Made by a program: the position numbers and the translations under genes. DNA of 64,000 bases from IMG/VR virus record IMGVR_UViG_3300045988_159436, one strand, 5' to 3'. The notes below the pieces were generated by a model. That model was not told the origin of the DNA. It was given only the letters and a program-made list of their open reading frames with translations, and did no database searches. Shown piece by piece: positions 8,254 through 28,842 of the stretch (position 1 is the stretch's first letter; each line of letters begins with the position of its first letter). Source of the DNA: a virus.

Positions 8254-8624
8254 TATTCTCTCCTTTGATTTTTCTTATGATTTAATATTGCTTTATTCCA
8301 ACAAGACGTACAATCCTTATCTTCACAGCACTTTGAATTATTTTTCATTCCTAAAACTTTGGGACAAAAGTTTCTAGTAATATAATCAAAATTAAGTGCG
8401 GCATAATAAGACATATTATAATATTTTCTTGATTTAATAAATTCATCACAATAATAGTTTTCATTATCTAGATAAGTTCTTTTTATTGTTGTTACCATGT
8501 TTTTTACTCCCTTTCTTTTTGATTGTAATACTATTATACCACATTTTTTTCTTTTTGTCAAGTGTTTTTTAAAATTTTTTAAAAAAATATGCTTTAAGAA
8601 AGAAAGAAGCAAAGAAAGAAACAA
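8253..8624 (-). CDS. hypothetical Cys-rich protein
   Basis: ORF track. Confidence 0.45.
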   Translation of the reverse strand: MFLSLLLSFLKHIFLKNFKKHLTKRKKCGIIVLQSKRKGVKNMVTTIKRTYLDNENYYCDEFIKSRKYYNMSYYAALNFDYITRNFCPKVLGMKNNSKCCEDKDCTSCWNKAILNHKKNQRRE

Positions 8625-8797: not shown

Positions 8798-8826
8798 TTG
8801 ACAAACGCTAAAAATTATGGTATAAT
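8798..8826 (+). promoter_or_regulatory. sigma70-type promoter TTGACA-17-TGgTATAAT
   Basis: consensus -35/-10 with extended -10. Confidence 0.7.
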
Positions 8827-11054: not shown

Positions 11055-11140
11055 GGAGGATTAGCCTAATGGTAAGGCATCAGTCTTGAAAACTGACGTG
11101 CGATTAAAGTCGTTTGTGGGTTCGAGTCCCATGTCCTCCT
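11055..11140 (+). tRNA. tRNA-Ser(TGA), type II
   Basis: cloverleaf by eye, long variable arm, CCA encoded. Confidence 0.7.
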
Positions 11141-11146
11141 CCACAT

Positions 11147-11222
11147 GAGTCAGTGTATTCTTGGGGTAAGGAAACGGTCTGCAAAACCGTTAAAATTCAC
11201 GGTTCAACTCCGTGCTGACTCT
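11147..11222 (+). tRNA. tRNA-Cys(GCA)-like (atypical D-arm)
   Basis: acceptor GAGTCAG/CTGACTC, anticodon loop ctGCAaa. Confidence 0.5.
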
Positions 11223-11239
11223 CCAATAAAAAATAATGC

Positions 11240-11268
11240 TTGACAAATACACAAAAGTGTGATATAAT
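11240..11268 (+). promoter_or_regulatory. sigma70-type promoter inside tRNA array
   Basis: TTGACA-17-TGtGATATAAT. Confidence 0.65.
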
Positions 11269-11279
11269 ATATATATAGT

Positions 11280-11350
11280 GCGGTAATAGTTTAAGGGTAA
11301 AACTTTAGCCTTCCAAGCTAATGTTACGAGTTCGATTCTCGTTTACCGCT
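11280..11350 (+). tRNA. tRNA-Gly(TCC)
   Basis: cloverleaf by eye. Confidence 0.7.
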
Positions 11351-11355
11351 CCAAT

Positions 11356-11426
11356 GGGCTGTTAGTTTAACGGTAGAACAGTGGTCTCCAAAACCATTAA
11401 TGGGGGTTCGATTCCTTCACGGCTCG
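11356..11426 (+). tRNA. tRNA-Trp(CCA)
   Basis: cloverleaf by eye. Confidence 0.7.
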
Positions 11427-11430
11427 CCAT

Positions 11431-11502
11431 ACTTAGGTAGTTCAATGGTAGAATCCCGCTCTGTTAAAGCGGTAGTTGTTGGTTCGAGTCCAACCCTAAG
11501 TG
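11431..11502 (+). tRNA. tRNA-Asn(GTT)
   Basis: cloverleaf by eye. Confidence 0.75.
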
Positions 11503-11507
11503 CCAAT

Positions 11508-11578
11508 GGAGGGTTAAGTCAACGGTAGACTAGGCAACTTATAATTGCTTAATATTGGTTCGATTCCAGTACCCTCAA
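11508..11578 (+). tRNA. tRNA-Ile(TAT) (AUA-reading) - acceptor 1:72 mismatch
   Basis: anticodon loop ctTATaa; good D and T arms. Confidence 0.5.
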
Positions 11579-11583
11579 CCAAT

Positions 11584-11657
11584 CTTTGTGTGGCGCAGTT
11601 TGGTAGCGCATTCGCTTTGGGAGCGAAGGGTCGCAGGTTCAAATCCTGCCACAAAGA
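11584..11657 (+). tRNA. tRNA-Pro(TGG)
   Basis: cloverleaf by eye. Confidence 0.75.
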
Positions 11658-11801
11658 CCAAAGACTATAAAAGGATAGGGCACTCCCTAGCGCAAAGTGG
11701 AGGATGCGGATTTCCGCTGTCGTAATGGCATCGTCTAAAAAAATCCTTTTAATTTGCCAGAGTAAAGCTAGCAAATGCTCTGGCATTAGATTGCGGGTGG
11801 G

Positions 11802-11875
11802 AGGCAAGGTGTTCTCGCAAGCCTCATAAGCTTGTTTAAGGTGGGTTCGATTCCCATACCCGCTCCCAAATAAAA
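11802..11875 (+). tRNA. tRNA-Met/Ile2(CAT), 5' end uncertain
   Basis: anticodon arm caagc-ctCATaa-gcttg, T arm gtggg-ttcgatt-cccat. Confidence 0.45.
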
Positions 11876-11937
11876 GTTCTAGCTTGGGCATAAGCTCTGG
11901 GGCTACCGTAGATAGGGACATTTCCCTATCACTTAAT

Positions 11938-12010
11938 GTGAATATAGCTTAGTTGGTAAAGCACTTGACTTTTAATCAAGATAGCGGAGGTTCAATTCCT
12001 CCTATTCACA
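11938..12010 (+). tRNA. tRNA-Lys(TTT)
   Basis: cloverleaf by eye. Confidence 0.75.
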
Positions 12011-12022
12011 CCAATTAATAAT

Positions 12023-12058
12023 GCAGGGGTTGCATAGTTGGCGATTGCACCAGACTGT
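12023..12058 (+). tRNA. 5' half of a tRNA split by HNH-gene insertion (acceptor GCAGGGG, D arm)
   Basis: pairs perfectly with 3' half at 12664-12688; anticodon arm cannot be completed by eye. Confidence 0.4.
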
Positions 12059-12073
12059 AAAGGAGCATAAAAA

Positions 12074-12667
12074 ATGCTTTGCGAAAACTGTAATAAAGAG
12101 CATAATGGAAGTTATGGTTCTGGAAGATTTTGTTCTAAAGAATGTGCTAAGTCTTTTTCTACCAAAAATAAAAGAAAACTAATAAACGAAAAGGTTAGTA
12201 ACAGTTTAAAAGGACGCATTGTTTCGGATTTAACTAGGAGAAAAATATCAGATGCTGGAAAAGGGAGAAGACATACAGAAGAGACTAAGAAGAAAATACA
12301 AAAAAGCAAATTAGAATTTTATAAAGAAGAAGAAAACATTCTTAAAATATCTATAGCGCATCTTGTCCAAAAAGGCAAGAATATAAATTCTATCTTAGAT
12401 GTTAGTCCTAGAACAGTGACTAAAATTTTAAAAAGGTTAAAAATTGGTTGCTCGTTGTGTGGTTGGGATAAAGCCACTTGCGACATTCACCATATTAAAG
12501 GCAGAAAAATAGTTAATCCTAATGCTCATAGTAATTTAACTTACATTTGTCCAAACTGTCATAGATTAGTACATGCGGGTTTAGTGGATTCAAAAGAGTT
12601 AGTGACACTTGAACAACATATAGGAGATAGGTGGAAAGAATACTATTTTAGAAAAGAGACACCGTAG
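12074..12667 (+). CDS. HNH homing endonuclease with N-terminal Zn finger and NUMOD3-like repeats
   Basis: CDIHHIKGR...N...CPNCHRLVH. Confidence 0.75.
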   Translation: MLCENCNKEHNGSYGSGRFCSKECAKSFSTKNKRKLINEKVSNSLKGRIVSDLTRRKISDAGKGRRHTEETKKKIQKSKLEFYKEEENILKISIAHLVQKGKNINSILDVSPRTVTKILKRLKIGCSLCGWDKATCDIHHIKGRKIVNPNAHSNLTYICPNCHRLVHAGLVDSKELVTLEQHIGDRWKEYYFRKETP

Positions 12668-12688
12668 GTTCGATTCCTACTCCCTGCA
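12664..12688 (+). tRNA. 3' half of split tRNA (T arm + acceptor TCCCTGC)
   Basis: gtagg-ttcgatt-cctac then tccctgc-a-cca. Confidence 0.4.
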
Positions 12689-12694
12689 CCATAT

Positions 12695-12728
12695 TTCCCA
12701 TTAGCTCAATGGATAGAGCACAGGTCTT
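12695..12728 (+). tRNA. tRNA-Arg(TCT) exon 1 (ends after U34 of anticodon loop)
   Basis: TTCCCAT-TA-GCTC...GAGC-A-CAGGT-CTT|. Confidence 0.55.
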
Positions 12729-13339
12729 TAAAGATAGGAGCGTTCATGTGGAACATTAAGAAAATTGTAAGTAAAGGTGATTATTTATATGCTTTAGTTC
12801 CTGAACATCCAAAAGCAACTAAGAATGGTTACGTTCTTTTACATAGGATTGTTATGGAAAATCATCTTGGTCGGTTACTTAATGCGAATGAAGTTGTACA
12901 TCATAAAAATTTGAATAAGAAAGATAACAACATCAAAAATTTAGAAATTTTGTCTATAAGAGAGCATGCTAAAAAACATGGATTAAAACTAAAGAAACAC
13001 ATGGTTTTGTTAAAATGTCCTTGTTGCAAGAAAGTGTTCTCGCTAGCTCGAAATAAATCTTTTTTAGTAAAGAAGACAAAATATAATTGTAACTGTTGTA
13101 GTTGTTCTTGTAGAGGTAAATTAACAAAAATGATACAGCTTCAAGGAGTAACACTTGAACTGGAAGATGCTATATCGGAGAATCTCTTAACGGAATATTT
13201 GCTAAACAAAGCCGAAGACAACTCCGAGGAAACCTTCTTACAAGGGGTTCTGTAGAGACTATACGCATCTTACCTGAAATGGTAAAGAAATAGTCCAGAC
13301 TACAACACATATGTGGCTATAGAAATATAGAGTAGTAAG
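12729..13339 (+). mobile_element. tRNA intron (group I-like) carrying HNH endonuclease
   Basis: follows U, ends in G; 3' exon restores anticodon loop cttCTaa, stem, T arm and acceptor ATGGGAA. Confidence 0.5.
12746..13255 (+). CDS. HNH endonuclease (HNH_3) with C-terminal Cys cluster
   Basis: VVHHKNLNKKDNNIKNLEIL. Confidence 0.75.
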   Translation: MWNIKKIVSKGDYLYALVPEHPKATKNGYVLLHRIVMENHLGRLLNANEVVHHKNLNKKDNNIKNLEILSIREHAKKHGLKLKKHMVLLKCPCCKKVFSLARNKSFLVKKTKYNCNCCSCSCRGKLTKMIQLQGVTLELEDAISENLLTEYLLNKAEDNSEETFLQGVL

Positions 13340-13377
13340 CTAAACCTTGTGTGCAGGTTCGATTCCTGCATGGGAAA
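13340..13377 (+). tRNA. tRNA-Arg(TCT) exon 2
   Basis: ctaa-acctt-gtgt-gcagg-ttcgatt-cctgc-atgggaa-a-cca. Confidence 0.55.
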
Positions 13378-13750
13378 CCAAATAGATTATAATAGCTTGG
13401 GGTTAAAATAAAATAGTGAGTCTAGATAACCATTAGTGACTTAGGGCGCATTAAGTTGGGTCAGCAACAGAAAAATCTGACACATTGGTCTGCTAGGGAC
13501 TTTAAAAAACTCACGCCTTTTGTTCATAGAGACAGAAGTTAGCCATTGATAGTATATATTTAACTGTATAAGTATATGCCGAGGCTTTATCAGTTCGCAC
13601 TGAGCTAATTTACAGCTAGGTATAGAGCCGAAGAAGAAAGTGCCAACCAAGCCATTTTATATACTAGGACTAAAGGGTAGAACGGTCAGCTACCGCCACA
13701 GAGAAGCTCTGGTAGGAGATGCTGGGTTGACAGCCAGCTTAGTTCTTATT

Positions 13751-13823
13751 TGCCAGATAGTGTAATGGTAACACAGCAGACCTTGACTCTGTTAAGTGTA
13801 GGTTCGAGTCCTACTCTGGCATC
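13751..13823 (+). tRNA. tRNA-Gln(TTG) (C33 in loop)
   Basis: cloverleaf by eye. Confidence 0.6.
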
Positions 13824-13828
13824 CATAT

Positions 13829-13900
13829 TGAAGCATAATACAAGGGTTAGTATGCTGTGCTGATAACGCAGAAATGATGGTTCAACTCCATCTGCTTCAA
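13829..13900 (+). tRNA. tRNA-Ile(GAT)
   Basis: cloverleaf by eye. Confidence 0.7.
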
Positions 13901-13904
13901 CCAT

Positions 13905-13978
13905 GTCCTATTACCCCAATCGGCAGAGGGAACGGACTTAAAATCCGTACAGTCTCAGTTCGAATCTGAGATAGGACA
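13905..13978 (+). tRNA. tRNA-Leu(TAA) with short variable arm (atypical type I)
   Basis: anticodon loop ctTAAaa. Confidence 0.5.
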
Positions 13979-13985
13979 CCAAAAT

Positions 13986-14058
13986 GGCATATTAGTCTAA
14001 TGGCTAGGACACAACACTTTCAATGTTGGGATGGCGAGTTCAATTCTCCCATATGTCA
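13986..14058 (+). tRNA. tRNA-Glu(TTC)
   Basis: cloverleaf by eye. Confidence 0.7.
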
Positions 14059-14064
14059 CCATAC

Positions 14065-14134
14065 ATGCCTTTAGCTTAGTTGGTTAAAGCGGCTGGTTGA
14101 AGCCCAGCAGAGTCCGTTCGATTCGGAGAGGCAT
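14065..14134 (+). tRNA. tRNA-Phe(GAA)
   Basis: cloverleaf by eye. Confidence 0.65.
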
Positions 14135-14139
14135 ACCAT

Positions 14140-14212
14140 GCTAGTGTAGCTCAATAGGTAGAGCAACGGCTTTGTAAGCCGTGGGTTGCGGGTTCAATTC
14201 CTGCCACTAGCT
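14140..14212 (+). tRNA. tRNA-Thr(TGT)
   Basis: cloverleaf by eye. Confidence 0.75.
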
Positions 14213-25161: not shown

Positions 25162-25834
25162 ATGTCTGAAAACCAAACACCAAAATTCCCAACAGCGAAT
25201 GATATTAATACAATTATTCGTGAGGGTGGTACTGAATTAGCCGCAGGTAATGCGATTCGCTTAATTAACGAATTAAAACCTGTGTATTCTAGAGAATTAG
25301 ACTATCAAGCTGAACCAGTTATGAGATTTTATCAGTTTGCGGCTGTAAAAACTGAGTTAATGACTCAACCTGGCAATACTATAAAAATGTTGACTTACAA
25401 AAACTTAGAGTTGCCGCCAGAATTGCTTGAAGGTGAGAGAATTAAATCTCAAACTTTAAGCTCTACAATGAAAGAAATTGTTGTTACAGAGCATGGTACT
25501 GCAACAGCAATTACTTCATTATCTTTACAGTTCTCTTTTGTTGACCAGATGGCTAACAGCTTAAAATTGCTGGGCAGAAATATTGGTCACGCAATCGAAT
25601 GTGAATTGAGAGATACTGCTTGCACAGGTGATGTAGGCACTTCTAAAATTTTTGGACGTAAAAAAGATGCGGCTAAAATTTCTGCAAGAGGTGATATTGC
25701 CACAGGTGCAAATGAATTATCAGTAGCAACTATTAAAGATGCTGTTGAAATTCTGTCAACTAACAATGCACCGAAAATTGGTGGCAATTATTACATTTGC
25801 TTCGTACATCCTTATTGTGGGGACTTGGCGGCGT
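25162..25834 (+). CDS. major capsid protein exon 1 (HK97-fold-like)
   Basis: ..TIKDAVEILSTNNAPK..GNYYICFVHPY.. then stop immediately inside intron. Confidence 0.65.
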
Positions 25835-26726
25835 AAGTCGTCTTGAAAAATAACGTGAAAACATGGAAGCCTAAGTCAGAGTTGTTCACTGATAAGGTAA
25901 TCATGTGAGAAGGCAGGATACATTAATGAATAGCTTACAGCAAGAAATTTTAATAGGAAAATTGTTGGGAGATGGAAGCATCTCTAAAGTATCAGAAAAA
26001 ACAGCAAGATTTAATATAGGTCAGTCTATAAAACAAGAAGATTATGTCAATCACCTTTATGGCATATTTAAAGATATGTGTGGTACTCCACCGAGAAAAC
26101 AGAAAAGTGGAGAATATACTACAGTTTATTTTAACTCATTGTCTTCTTTTGAATTAATGGACATTTATAAGCTATTTGTAAATGACGGTATAAAAGGAGT
26201 TCCTCAAAATATTGAAGAATTACTGACAGTAAGAGGGTTAGCTTATTGGTTTATGGATGATGGGACAAGTTCCTATGTTTCCATAACAAAAAGATTAAAA
26301 ACCAGAAATGCTTTTGCAATGTTTTGTACTGATGCGTTTAACGATAAAGATATAGATTTATTGAGAAATGCTTTGTTCAAAAACTTCGGAATCAAAAGTA
26401 GTGTGGCTAGTCCAAAATCAAGAAAAGGAAAAAGAATTTATATTGGAACAGATGAGACCCAGAAACTCTTTGATTTAATTGAGCCTTTTATAATCGACAG
26501 TATGTCATATAAAATAAAAAGACCTTACATACTGTAAAATATCTGTGCCCTTGCAACGACTATGGACGTTACTTCCTTGAAAAGAGGAAGATGAGATAGT
26601 CTGGACTTATAGGAAACTATAAGAGGGGATTCCGTTAGGGAGTTGTACGCCCTACATTGAAGTGTTTCCCCCGCCAAGAAATTGGTCATAAAAGTAACAG
26701 ATAGCATCAATCAAGAACATTGCGGG
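25835..26726 (+). mobile_element. group I-like intron A in capsid gene carrying LAGLIDADG HEG
   Basis: 5' region cgtgaaaacatggaa..atcatgtgagaagg repeated in intron B; 3' core gagatagtctg..aagagggg..cccgccaagaaattggtca. Confidence 0.5.
25905..26537 (+). CDS. LAGLIDADG homing endonuclease
   Basis: LLGDGSISK and YWFMDDGTSS. Confidence 0.8.
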   Translation: MRRQDTLMNSLQQEILIGKLLGDGSISKVSEKTARFNIGQSIKQEDYVNHLYGIFKDMCGTPPRKQKSGEYTTVYFNSLSSFELMDIYKLFVNDGIKGVPQNIEELLTVRGLAYWFMDDGTSSYVSITKRLKTRNAFAMFCTDAFNDKDIDLLRNALFKNFGIKSSVASPKSRKGKRIYIGTDETQKLFDLIEPFIIDSMSYKIKRPYIL

Positions 26727-26756
26727 ATGACCCAGCTTGGATGAAGACAGCGGCGT
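26727..26756 (+). CDS. putative capsid mini-exon (~10 codons, YDPAWMKTAA); boundaries uncertain
   Basis: in-frame join satisfying U/G splice rules; gcggcgt 5' splice context duplicated at 25828-25834 and 26750-26756. Confidence 0.3.
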
Positions 26757-26892
26757 AAGCCGATAGCATTAGTCCACTTGTGCAGAAATGCACTCGATTA
26801 AACTTCGTGAAAACATGGAACTCCTAAACCGAAAGGCATGGCAATCATGTGAGAAGGTTATGTGAAAATCTATTTTAAAAGGAGTAACGAAA

Positions 26893-27477
26893 GTGAAACA
26901 AGTAATTAAAGATTATCCAAATTATTTGATAACTACATCTGGAAAAGTTCTTTCCGCTTATAAAGGGGGAGAAGAGCTAGTTCCTAGAGTTGGAACTAGA
27001 GGATACGCTTATGTAAATCTTTATAACGAAAAAGGCAGAAAAACAAAAAAGATACATAGACTTGTAGCTGAAACGTTTATACCTAACCCAGAAAATAAGC
27101 CTATGGTAAATCATAAAGACGGAAACAAGTTAAATAATCATGTAGAGAATTTAGAATGGGTAACACCCTCTGAAAATGCTCAACATGCTGTTGATAATGG
27201 GTTGCTGTCTTTTGATACAGAAGCACATAAAAGAGCTTCTCGTGAAAATGGCAAAATGTTTGGTGGAAGGTGTGGCAGAAAGATTTTCGCCATGAATGTT
27301 ATAAATGGATATATAAAAACTTTTAAGAGCGTGTCAGAAGCTGTGAAATATTTAAATGTGACAGAAAACTCATTAAGAACAGCTCTTAAAAAAAGTAAGT
27401 GTATAAATGGTTATCATGTTTGGTATACAGATACCCTTGCAACGACTATGGACGAAGAGCCCAAAATAGGGTTATGA
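26893..27477 (+). CDS. HNH homing endonuclease (NUMOD4 + HNH_3 + AP2-like)
   Basis: PNYLITTSGKV.., HHKDGNKLNNHVENLEWVTPSEN. Confidence 0.8.
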   Translation: MKQVIKDYPNYLITTSGKVLSAYKGGEELVPRVGTRGYAYVNLYNEKGRKTKKIHRLVAETFIPNPENKPMVNHKDGNKLNNHVENLEWVTPSENAQHAVDNGLLSFDTEAHKRASRENGKMFGGRCGRKIFAMNVINGYIKTFKSVSEAVKYLNVTENSLRTALKKSKCINGYHVWYTDTLATTMDEEPKIGL

Positions 27478-27727
27478 GATAGTCTAACCTTGTGGGAAAC
27501 CGCAAGAGGGTTACTCAGGTGTAAAGACACCTTAAAGAAGTAGTAGCCCCGCCAAGAAATTGGTCAGTACCCTTAACGTAGTGGGGGAAAGTAATAGGAA
27601 CTGTAATGCAAGTAACTACGGCGCACCAGAACAGTTATTTAGCGGTAGATTTTGCCGCTGTGCTTGAATAAAAACAAGTACAAAGAACTCTGCTAAACGG
27701 TTGGCTTTAAAAAGCCTATGAATTATC

Positions 27728-27756
27728 TTGACAATCAGGAAACAATATGGTATAAT
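27728..27756 (+). promoter_or_regulatory. sigma70-type promoter inside capsid intron
   Basis: TTGACA-17-TGgTATAAT. Confidence 0.6.
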
Positions 27757-27989
27757 GTTAAGCTAATAAGTGAACCCCAATGGGGCAATACCGTACTAAA
27801 GAAGTCATTTATATGAGATATAAATTGACTGAAAAAGTCTAACGACTATACACAGAGTACCTTGAATGTTTAACATGGGTAAAGAGATAGTCTGACCACA
27901 TAGGTAACTATGTGAGGGGTAGTCAAGTGTAAAGACACTTATAGAAGCACGCCCCCGCTTACTTTTGTAAGTAAAATGGGTATTTACCG

Positions 27990-28312
27990 CCCATAGTAAC
28001 AATTTGGAAATCGGTAGAATAGATGATGTTCGTTTTATTGAGACAACTATGATGCCTAATGGTGCCGCACCTGCTGGTGATAATATCGCTGGTTATAAAG
28101 CTGATTTAAAGGGTGCAGGCAAAAATAGCATTGATGTATACCAAGCTGTTTTATTTGGTGAAGATTACTACGCTATGGCAGTAGCTTTACCGCCTGAAAT
28201 CAGAACAGATACTCCACAAGATTTCCAACGTGAGTTAAAACTCGGTTGGTATGGAATTTGGGGCACTAAATCCTTGAATCCTACTCATGGCGTTATCATT
28301 GAAACTGCTTAA
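27990..28312 (+). CDS. major capsid protein terminal exon (..HSNNLEIGRIDDVRFIETTMMP..)
   Basis: GxIGxxxxVRFIET motif typical of HK97-like capsid C-termini; no ATG/RBS of its own. Confidence 0.65.
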
Positions 28313-28335: not shown

Positions 28336-28800
28336 ATGGCTGAAAAATTAACGGATACTGATGTATTCTATATGGAGCAAGCCCCAGAAGTTGTTGCCAG
28401 TAAAACAGGAGCTGACGTCAATGACGTGTTCTTCGCAGAACAAGACCCTAGTAAATTGGCAAAAACTCTTGATGTCTCAGAGGATTCTGTATTTCATTAC
28501 AAGCAAGACCCAAATCTGCTTGCTAATGAGTATGCTGGTGGGGATACCCCTACGCCAGTTACGCTGGTAAGCATAGCGGTAACAACACCGCCCACAAAAA
28601 CAACATATGCAATCGGTGAAGCATTAGACATCACTGGTATGGTTGTAACTGGAACTTACAGCGATTCTAGCACTAAAGTTGAAACTGTGACAACAGATAA
28701 TGTTACAGGCTTTGATAGTGCAGAAGCTGGCGAAAAAACTTGTACTGTAACTGTAAGTGGCAAAACTGCTACATTCACTGTTACAGTATCAGCTTCATAA
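28336..28800 (+). CDS. head decoration/Ig-like (Big_3-type) domain protein
   Basis: C-terminal Ig-like domain shared with major tail protein. Confidence 0.5.
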   Translation: MAEKLTDTDVFYMEQAPEVVASKTGADVNDVFFAEQDPSKLAKTLDVSEDSVFHYKQDPNLLANEYAGGDTPTPVTLVSIAVTTPPTKTTYAIGEALDITGMVVTGTYSDSSTKVETVTTDNVTGFDSAEAGEKTCTVTVSGKTATFTVTVSAS

Positions 28801-28811
28801 GAACCTTTTAA

Positions 28812-28842
28812 GGGAAGGGGATAATTCCCTTCCCTATTTTTA
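28812..28842 (+). terminator. rho-independent terminator
   Basis: gggaagggg-ataa-ttcccttccc + T-run. Confidence 0.7.

Follow-up and report, generated by a model that had tools for sequence, protein, structure and literature searches.

An uncultured tailed phage with a major capsid gene interrupted by three group I introns, two of them with homing endonuclease genes

Exon map of the major capsid gene

The DNA analysed here is a stretch of 64,000 nucleotides from a virus (IMG/VR record IMGVR_UViG_3300045988_159436), called the window in the following, with positions counted from its first letter. It contains a major capsid gene of the N4-gp56 type, which starts at 25162 with the ribosome binding site (RBS) aggag upstream. 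The open reading frames (ORFs) of this region are a frame from 25162 to 25836 that ends with ..FVHPYCGDLAA*, a frame up to 26537 of 203 or 210 amino acids, depending on whether it is counted from 25926 or 25905, a frame of 194 amino acids at 26893-27477 and a start-less frame up to 28312. Alignment of the window with an intron-less allele reveals three group I introns and four exons, and with a probability of about 0.9 we consider that the capsid mRNA is restored from them by group I splicing. A previous sequence-only reading had proposed a major capsid gene split by group I introns with LAGLIDADG and HNH genes. The exon map, the intron anatomy and the Pfam matches agree with this central idea, and the capsid ORF at 25162-25836 was described correctly.

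The exon map is based on a search of a large protein collection, which retrieved an uninterrupted capsid protein of 345 amino acids (P0001; 97-98% identical) reading ..FVHPHQSRTLRDDPAWINASNYGAPEQLFSGEIGRIDD... Its DNA, L003, lies in a sister genome that is otherwise colinear with the window. The alignment of the window with L003 consists of exactly four blocks, all on the + strand, which represent the four exons. Exon 1 (25162..25812, aligned with L003:3679-4329) has 217 codons, ends with ..YYICFVHP and has U as its last base. Exon 2 (26705..26742, L003:4330-4367) is 38 nt long and encodes HQSRTLRDDPAW, after which two bases begin an Ile codon. The third base of this codon opens the 43 nt of exon 3 (27604..27646, L003:4368-4410), followed by NASNYGAPEQLFSG. 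Exon 4 (28007..28312, L003:4411-4716) encodes EIGRIDDVRFIETT...IIETA and the stop codon. The three introns sit within 82 nt of coding sequence.

Joined together, the exons amount to 1038 nt and 345 amino acids. They align gap-free, with 987 of the 1038 nucleotides identical to L003:3679-4716 and 340 of the 345 residues identical to P0001, and the junction peptide FVHP|HQSRTLRDDPAWI|NASNYGAPEQLFSG|EIGRIDD is the same in the joined product and in P0001. The joined protein matches the profile TIGR04387 capsid_maj_N4 over its full length with 126.1 bits (cutoff 60), which the unjoined fragments do not pass. It also has a Pfam capsid match over residues 209-297 that spans the junctions, while the fragments taken singly are without a Pfam match. 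The nearest annotated relative is the major head protein of Bacillus phage BCD7, with 49% identity, which reads ..FVHPHQSRTLRDDPAWIEASKYGAPEQLFTGEIGRIDDVRFIETT... Similarity of the capsid to GenBank phages exists at the protein level only (BCD7 and Streptomyces phages), and megablast and blastn searches of the capsid gene against GenBank phages gave no useful match. The source of the window is an uncultured tailed phage with a distant relation to BCD7. A scan of genome contigs with the capsid protein, which might have pointed to a host, found no relative. The sequence L026, which matched 'NYYICFVH', was dismissed as a capsid relative; it encodes a small unrelated protein.

The exon boundaries differ from those given in the sequence-only reading. 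There, the first capsid exon ended at 25836, a mini-exon occupied 26727-26756 and the last exon began at 27990. According to the gap-free alignment to the intron-less allele, exon 1 already ends at 25812 (..FVHP), the mini-exon lies at 26705-26742, a second mini-exon at 27604-27646 (..NASNYGAPEQLFSG) had been overlooked, and the last exon opens with EIGRIDD.. at 28007. The number of introns, left at two or three, is three. A gene with two introns and one mini-exon, joined at 25834|26727 and 26756|27990, would also obey the rule of U before and G at the end of the intron and would also stay in frame. Its product with the junction peptide ..FVHPYCGDLAA-YDPAWMKTAA-SHSNNLEIG.. has 341 amino acids, four fewer than P0001, and swaps out HQSRTLRD and INASNYGAPEQLFSG, which are invariant in P0001 and conserved in BCD7. 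The DNA discarded by such joins encodes exactly these missing residues, the P1 and P10 pairings described below fit the corrected sites and not these, and the exon at 27604-27646 is flanked by complete ribozyme 3' and 5' ends. Two introns are hardly credible on this evidence. Two other pairs of junctions for intron 2, 26737|27599 and 26756|27618, are likewise in frame and were rejected, as they are contradicted by the intron-less allele.

The corrected map of four exons gives back a normal capsid protein of 345 amino acids for a gene that current annotation breaks up into pieces of 224, 234 or 256 amino acids. This misannotation concerns an abundant lineage of uncultured phages.

Intron anatomy and covariation

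All three introns are preceded by U and have G as their terminal base, with the junctions set by the intron-less allele. A guide sequence just 3' of each 5' splice site pairs with the exon ends, and a U·G wobble closes P1 in every case (UCCU/GGGG in intron 1, UGGAU/GUCCA in intron 2, AGCGGU/GCCGCU in intron 3). P10 comprises 6 bp both in intron 2 (UAAUGC/GCAUUA) and in intron 3 (GAAAUC/GAUUUU). The core helices P2 to P9, the P3/P7 pseudoknot and a J8/7-P7 consensus (AGAUAUAGUC-like) could be placed in each intron.

Intron 1 (25813..26704, + strand, 892 nt, terminal G at 26704) holds an ORF in the loop of P6, and L003 and the relative L006 lack the intron at exactly this point. Its helices are P1 (25809-12/25819-22), P2 with a GUAA loop (25827-32/25837-42), P3 (25852-56/26566-70), P4 (25861-66/25901-06), P6 (25910-13/26549-52), P7 (26558-62/26597-601), P8 (26572-77/26585-90), P9 (26606-12/26617-23), P9.1 (26625-29/26667-71) and P9.2 (26674-77/26682-85). 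Intron 2 (26743..27603, + strand, 861 nt, terminal G at 27603) is a paralogue of intron 1, also with an ORF in the P6 loop. It forms P1 (26738-42/26772-76), P10 (26766-71/27604-09), P2 with a GAAA loop (26780-84/26789-93), P3 (26804-08/27452-56), P4 (26813-18/26845-50), P7 (27444-48/27480-84), P8 (27458-62/27469-73), P9 (27489-95/27500-06) and P9.1 (27508-15/27542-49). Intron 3 (27647..28006, + strand, 360 nt, terminal G at 28006) is ORF-less, with P1 (27641-46/27654-59), P10 (27648-53/28007-12), P2 (27660-66/27675-81), P3 (27688-92/27853-57), P4 (27697-701/27790-94), P5 (27703-07/27712-16), P6 (27803-14/27818-30), P7 (27844-48/27888-92), P8 (27858-61/27878-81), P9 (27897-903/27908-14) and P9.1 to P9.3, which reach 27994.

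The relationship between the introns is visible in shared sequence. A core of 48 nt with 69-75% identity occurs three times (26580, 27463, 27871), and an identical block of 21 nt twice (26548, 27434). The threefold core had been noted in the sequence-only reading, together with two elements that turn out to be confined to part of the copies: gtgtaaagac is present in copies 2 and 3 only, and cccgccaagaaattggtca in copies 1 and 2 only. The 5' module CGTGAAAACATGGAA...ATCATGTGAGAAGG does occur twice, as had been stated (25854/25896 and 26806/26840). Further GAGATAGTCT-like sites, at 2495, 18628 and 46390 of the window, were set aside; they have no intron core around them, and a count of six is not above chance. 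No sequence similarity to intron 3 was detected by blastn among GenBank phages. The core motif AACGACTAT-N15-45-GAGATAGTCT was found in about 20 further viral contigs (L027-L055), in unrelated genes and with conserved 3' ends ..GTAACAA(A/T)TTG, so the intron family extends beyond this phage group.

The proposed helices are supported by covariation. For intron 3, three variants were compared (the window, L006 and the more distant L045 with its ORF removed). Here, paired cells make up 96.2%, and compensatory changes occur in 18 of 91 pairs, compared to 6.2 ± 1.9 in shuffled controls, none of which reached the observed value (0/500), and 0-4 in slid controls. For the family of introns 1 and 2, represented by five sequences, the paired share is 95.2%, and 19 of 50 pairs show compensatory changes (shuffles 11.0 ± 2.0, 0/500; slid controls ≤4). 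P1 of intron 3 tracks synonymous changes of the exon through its three variants (agcggt/gccgct, agtggt/gccact, aatggt/gccatt). P10 of intron 2 likewise covaries with synonymous exon change between the window (taatgc/gcatta) and L006 (taacgc/gcgtta).

Several observations weigh against three functional group I introns. P10 of intron 1 has only about 3 bp and its P1 only 4 bp. P6 and P7 are invariant and therefore uninformative for covariation, and the covariation sets are small (three and five sequences), with the structures drawn from those same sequences. No P7.1/P7.2 helices were seen in the three introns; such helices are typical of the IA subgroup, which includes the classic phage IA2 introns. 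At gathering threshold, Rfam finds no intron in the whole window, only tRNAs and a skipping-rope RNA. The covariance model for group I introns (RF00028, Intron_gpI; gathering score 50 bits), which the sequence-only reading had named as a check, gives sub-threshold matches of 27.3 bits for intron 1 (E=2e-4), 29.0 for intron 2, 33.2 for intron 3 (E=7e-7) and 30.4 for the L006 version. In each of the three introns, the matched parts are J6/7-P7 and J8/7-P7-P9, at E-values from 2e-4 to 7e-7. The model is disrupted by inserted ORFs and by peripheral helices, and the shortfall reflects the model rather than the intron anatomy. The standard Rfam model at its curated threshold overlooks all these introns. 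A ToxI-like match at 27557-27592 (22.8 bits versus 50, E=0.45) was taken as chance.

The low Rfam scores, with splicing inferred from sequence, could also be read as signs of a dead or decaying capsid gene that was inactivated by endonuclease cassettes. The state of the exons does not fit decay. All four are in frame, and their 51 nucleotide differences to L003 lead to just five amino acid changes, a sign of purifying selection. Compensatory changes maintain the ribozyme helices, and among the ORFs examined around the gene, no second ORF resembling a major capsid protein was noticed, with the whole window not searched for one. The layout with all three introns recurs in four IMG/VR contigs of 50-96 kb, which also argues against a mis-assembly, and the endonuclease proteins are found on 148-237 contigs, as fits a thriving lineage. 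We regard a decaying gene as very improbable.

Splicing would follow the group I pathway. In the late pre-mRNA, each intron would fold into its group I core, an exogenous G would attack after the U·G pair of P1, and P10 would guide the ligation of the exons behind the terminal G. Joining exons 1 to 4 in this way would yield the mRNA for the capsid protein of 345 amino acids. A direct join of exon 1 to exon 4 would also keep the frame.

Endonuclease genes in introns 1 and 2

The ORF of intron 1 (25926..26537, + strand) encodes 203 amino acids from an ATG, with the motifs LLGDGS and FMDDGT, and is I-SceI-like. It matches Pfam PF03161 LAGLIDADG_2 with 122.9 bits (cutoff 25) over profile positions 2-168 of 168, and the structures PDB 6x1j (E=3.8e-17) and I-SceI, 1r7m (E=7.7e-12 over residues 4-198). 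By these matches, it is a monomeric double-motif LAGLIDADG homing endonuclease with predicted cleavage activity. The ORF of intron 2 (26893..27477, + strand) encodes 194 amino acids with a GTG start and the RBS aaggag. It passes Pfam HNH_3 with 42 bits (cutoff 24.8) and matches I-HmuI (PDB 1u3e) over residues 5-116 with E=2.4e-13, while NUMOD1 (20.9, cutoff 22.8) and NUMOD4 (20.1, cutoff 23.4) both remain slightly under cutoff. It is an I-HmuI-like HNH homing endonuclease, predicted to nick. The two proteins are exactly those of DAF66476.1 (LAGLIDADG, on 237 contigs) and DAF66479.1 (HNH, on 148 contigs). Both entries are third party annotations of metagenomes in GenBank, where the capsid appears only as fragments.

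Endonuclease genes split phage genes in other systems, for example in mobE-type insertions. A solution at the protein level could thus be imagined, either by inteins or by a capsid built from separately translated fragments with free-standing endonuclease genes between them. The probability of this is close to nil. An in-frame stop follows one to eight codons after each exon, and each endonuclease ORF has a start codon and an RBS of its own and is thus not read through from the capsid exons. The exons of 38 and 43 nt contain neither start codon nor RBS, and the inserts bear group I cores, not intein blocks.

In intron 2, the last 44 nt of the HNH ORF (27434-27477) overlap the ribozyme core from P6' through P7 and P3' to P8, with the TGA stop inside J8/7. 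A likely RBS of intron 1, GAGAAGG (25906-25913), overlaps the 5' strand of P6. Given these two overlaps, translation and ribozyme folding may compete in introns 1 and 2.

Intron polymorphism and signs of homing among relatives

The distribution of the introns was read from fifteen viral contigs and from ENA and Logan contigs of close relatives. No intron is present in L003-5, L015, L021 and L024, introns 1, 2 and 3 are all present in L012, L016, L020 and L023, and only introns 2 and 3 in L006-11 and L022. A fourth group I intron stands alone in L013, L017 and L018 and is combined with intron 1 in L014 and L019. This intron 4 (L013:5109-6166; also in L014 and L017-L019) is inserted 28 nt downstream of site 3, where it separates the first base of the Phe codon in DDVRF|IETT from the other two. 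It is 1058 nt long, carries a LAGLIDADG gene for 264 amino acids and scores 43.9 bits with RF00028. Among more distant capsid genes, L033 has an intron of the intron 1 type at the same codon, and L045 (reverse strand) has intron 1 and an intron of the intron 3 type after ..ttatttaatggt, without intron 2. With the distant relatives included, there are seven configurations.

The four sites, at nucleotides 651, 689, 732 and 760 of the spliced sequence, all fall within 110 nt. They lie in the most conserved stretch of 38 residues, which has a mean identity of 0.85 versus 0.57 overall and ranks first of 308 windows in an alignment of 118 homologues. Between genomes with a capsid exon divergence of 1-6%, intron identity amounts to 99.9-100%. 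Introns that match at 2113 of 2113 nt (L016 and L023) stand beside exons of 93-99% identity. The exons next to them carry tracts of co-conversion. All alleles with introns 1, 2 and 3 are identical over about nt 637-748, a tract at about nt 749-775 is common to the intron 4 alleles and private to them, and the alleles with introns 1 and 4 are window-like near site 1 and intron-less-like from nt 690 on. Presence or absence of the introns, their near-identity and the co-conversion tracts indicate recent, endonuclease-driven homing, of which they would be the expected signature. The same data indicate that intron 1, the pair of introns 2 and 3, and intron 4 move independently.

Within one metagenome (sample 3300045988; L012, L014, L016-L018, L020-L024), intron-less versions occur besides versions with introns 2 and 3, with introns 1, 2 and 3, with intron 4 and with introns 1 and 4. 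This points to coexistence of the variants, with mixed infections as an occasion for them to encounter each other. In such an infection, the enzymes of introns 1 and 2 would cut or nick intron-less capsid alleles, and repair from the intron-bearing genome would transfer the intron and, with it, short tracts of the adjoining exons. For intron 3, which has no endonuclease gene, the most likely way of spreading is as a passenger of intron 2, 43 nt away. The ORF-less intron 3 is found only beside intron 2, which supports the passenger route and is not proof of it.

The intron 3 type of L045 contains an ORF for 295 amino acids with helix-turn-helix and LAGLIDADG domains in the P6 loop, and the P6 hairpin of intron 3 in the window is in essence the P6 stem of L045 minus this ORF. 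Intron 3 of the window looks like the ORF-less counterpart, with the ORF lost or never gained, of a version with a LAGLIDADG gene in P6. A scan for further variants of intron 3 returned the same three versions only.

Comparison with known systems

Three introns in a single phage gene have precedents. The gene orf142 of Staphylococcus phage Twort reportedly contains three group I introns, the splicing of which is said to have been shown experimentally by Landthaler and Shub in 1999, a study cited in PMC11878797 and PMC6669764. Twort resembles the capsid gene described here in that three group I introns are crowded into a short part of one protein gene, with small exons between them. Its host, a low-GC Gram-positive bacterium, may be a further likeness. 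Unlike in Twort, the gene in the window is an N4-gp56-type capsid gene, two of its introns have endonuclease genes, and splicing is inferred only. Phage ICP1 shares the layout with four exons separated by three introns in a virion structural gene, the HNH_3 enzyme in the middle intron, and an intron content that varies between isolates with splice junctions kept. It differs in the gene, the phage lineage and the phylum of the host, its splicing was confirmed by reverse transcription PCR, and the first intron here, unlike in ICP1, also has a LAGLIDADG gene. SPO1-type introns encode I-HmuI (PDB 1U3E), which the enzyme of intron 2 resembles by sequence, with nicking predicted only.

Single-intron capsid genes occur in lactococcal phage Tuc2009 and mycobacteriophage LittleE (PMC3706429). 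As in the window, an endonuclease-bearing group I intron resides in the most highly expressed late structural gene, with U at -1, a terminal G and a junction defined by an intron-less sister phage (PMC3706429). These phages are unrelated and have one intron each in an HK97-type capsid gene, whereas three introns share one gene here and four sites are in use in the population. In Bastillevirinae, DNA polymerase and terminase genes have two or three introns (PMC11878797). Similar to our findings, several group I introns occur per gene, most ribozymes are interrupted by a loop with an endonuclease ORF, and covariance models detect the introns poorly or on one side of the ORF only (PMC11878797). 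The targets there are replication and packaging genes instead of the capsid, and splicing in vitro was included (PMC11878797). For the passenger model of intron 3, the closest parallel is the trans-homing of the defunct I-TevIII intron by mobE of T4, where a neighbouring endonuclease carries along an intron without a working endonuclease (PMC2790892). Unlike mobE, which is a free-standing gene, the helper proposed here is intron-encoded and 43 nt away.

In view of documented three-intron phage genes and intron-split capsid genes (PMC11878797, PMC10448857, PMC3706429), the rarity claimed in the sequence-only reading was overstated. Two further features of the present case are the hotspot of four sites with its natural series of configurations and the ORF-less intron with a consensus promoter described below. 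Four sites with seven combinations in an essential late gene represent a compact natural data set on homing. The series is suited for the study of hitch-hiking by ORF-less introns and of intron-mediated competition between phages.

A consensus promoter in intron 3 and transcription signals

Intron 3 contains an extended sigma-A/70 promoter motif, TTGACA-17-TGgTATAAT (27728..27756, + strand), with a perfect 12/12 match. This motif had been recognised before and assigned to the second intron; it sits in the third. It is located in the enlarged middle hairpin of the P5 domain, which measures 52 nt in the window versus 21 nt in L006. Perfect TTGACA-N17-TATAAT sites number 15 in the 64-kb window, all with TG at -15/-14, compared to a chance estimate of about 0.004 per 64 kb. 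On the + strand they start at 8798, 9151, 10392, 11240, 20806, 27728, 32001, 49359, 49452, 52524, 60072, 60630 and 62508, on the - strand at 8561 and 6780. Except for the intron copy, these sites (14) are intergenic and run in the direction of genes, and an A-rich tract lies upstream of most of them. Consensus promoters of the host type seem to serve this phage throughout, also in front of the terminase and tail modules.

The promoter at 27728 might be functional and restart transcription within intron 3, serving exon 4 and the downstream Big_3 decoration-like gene (28336-28800), instead of being left over from an endonuclease. The perfect match and the excess of such sites over expectation speak for function, as does the strong terminator that follows the gene next to the capsid. 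Intron 4 has the same perfect TTGACA-17-TATAAT promoter before its LAGLIDADG gene, so promoters of the phage type are used in these introns. On the other hand, the copy at 27728 is without the A-rich upstream tract of most other copies and is missing from the L006 and L045 versions of intron 3. The motif is some 50 nt upstream of the loop of P6, the place of the endonuclease ORF in L045, and a vestigial endonuclease promoter is therefore equally plausible. In addition, a transcript from 27728 would be unable to splice and would not contain a translatable exon 4. A role in re-initiation is possible, and on balance less likely than not.

A wider reading would combine these results. The 110-nt segment that encodes the most conserved 38 residues would be a contest zone at the population level, in which four independently mobile introns (intron 1, the pair of introns 2 and 3, and intron 4) actively sweep through co-occurring gut-type phages. 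Intron 3 would then be kept not only as a passenger, and a functional promoter re-initiating for the decoration gene would maintain it, or the endonucleases would serve as weapons against co-infecting relatives that lack the introns, as reported for gp210 of PhiPA3 (PMC11620839). Taken as a whole, we hold this picture to be unlikely.

A terminator-like hairpin at 28811-28835, with a stem of 11 bp followed by a T-run, stands directly after the Big_3 gene. It is predicted to close the transcription unit that runs from the terminase to the decoration-like gene. Elsewhere in the window, 14 tRNA genes form an array at 11055-14212, and within this array lies the skipping-rope RNA RF02924 (13666-13746; 49.7 bits, gathering score 36.7).

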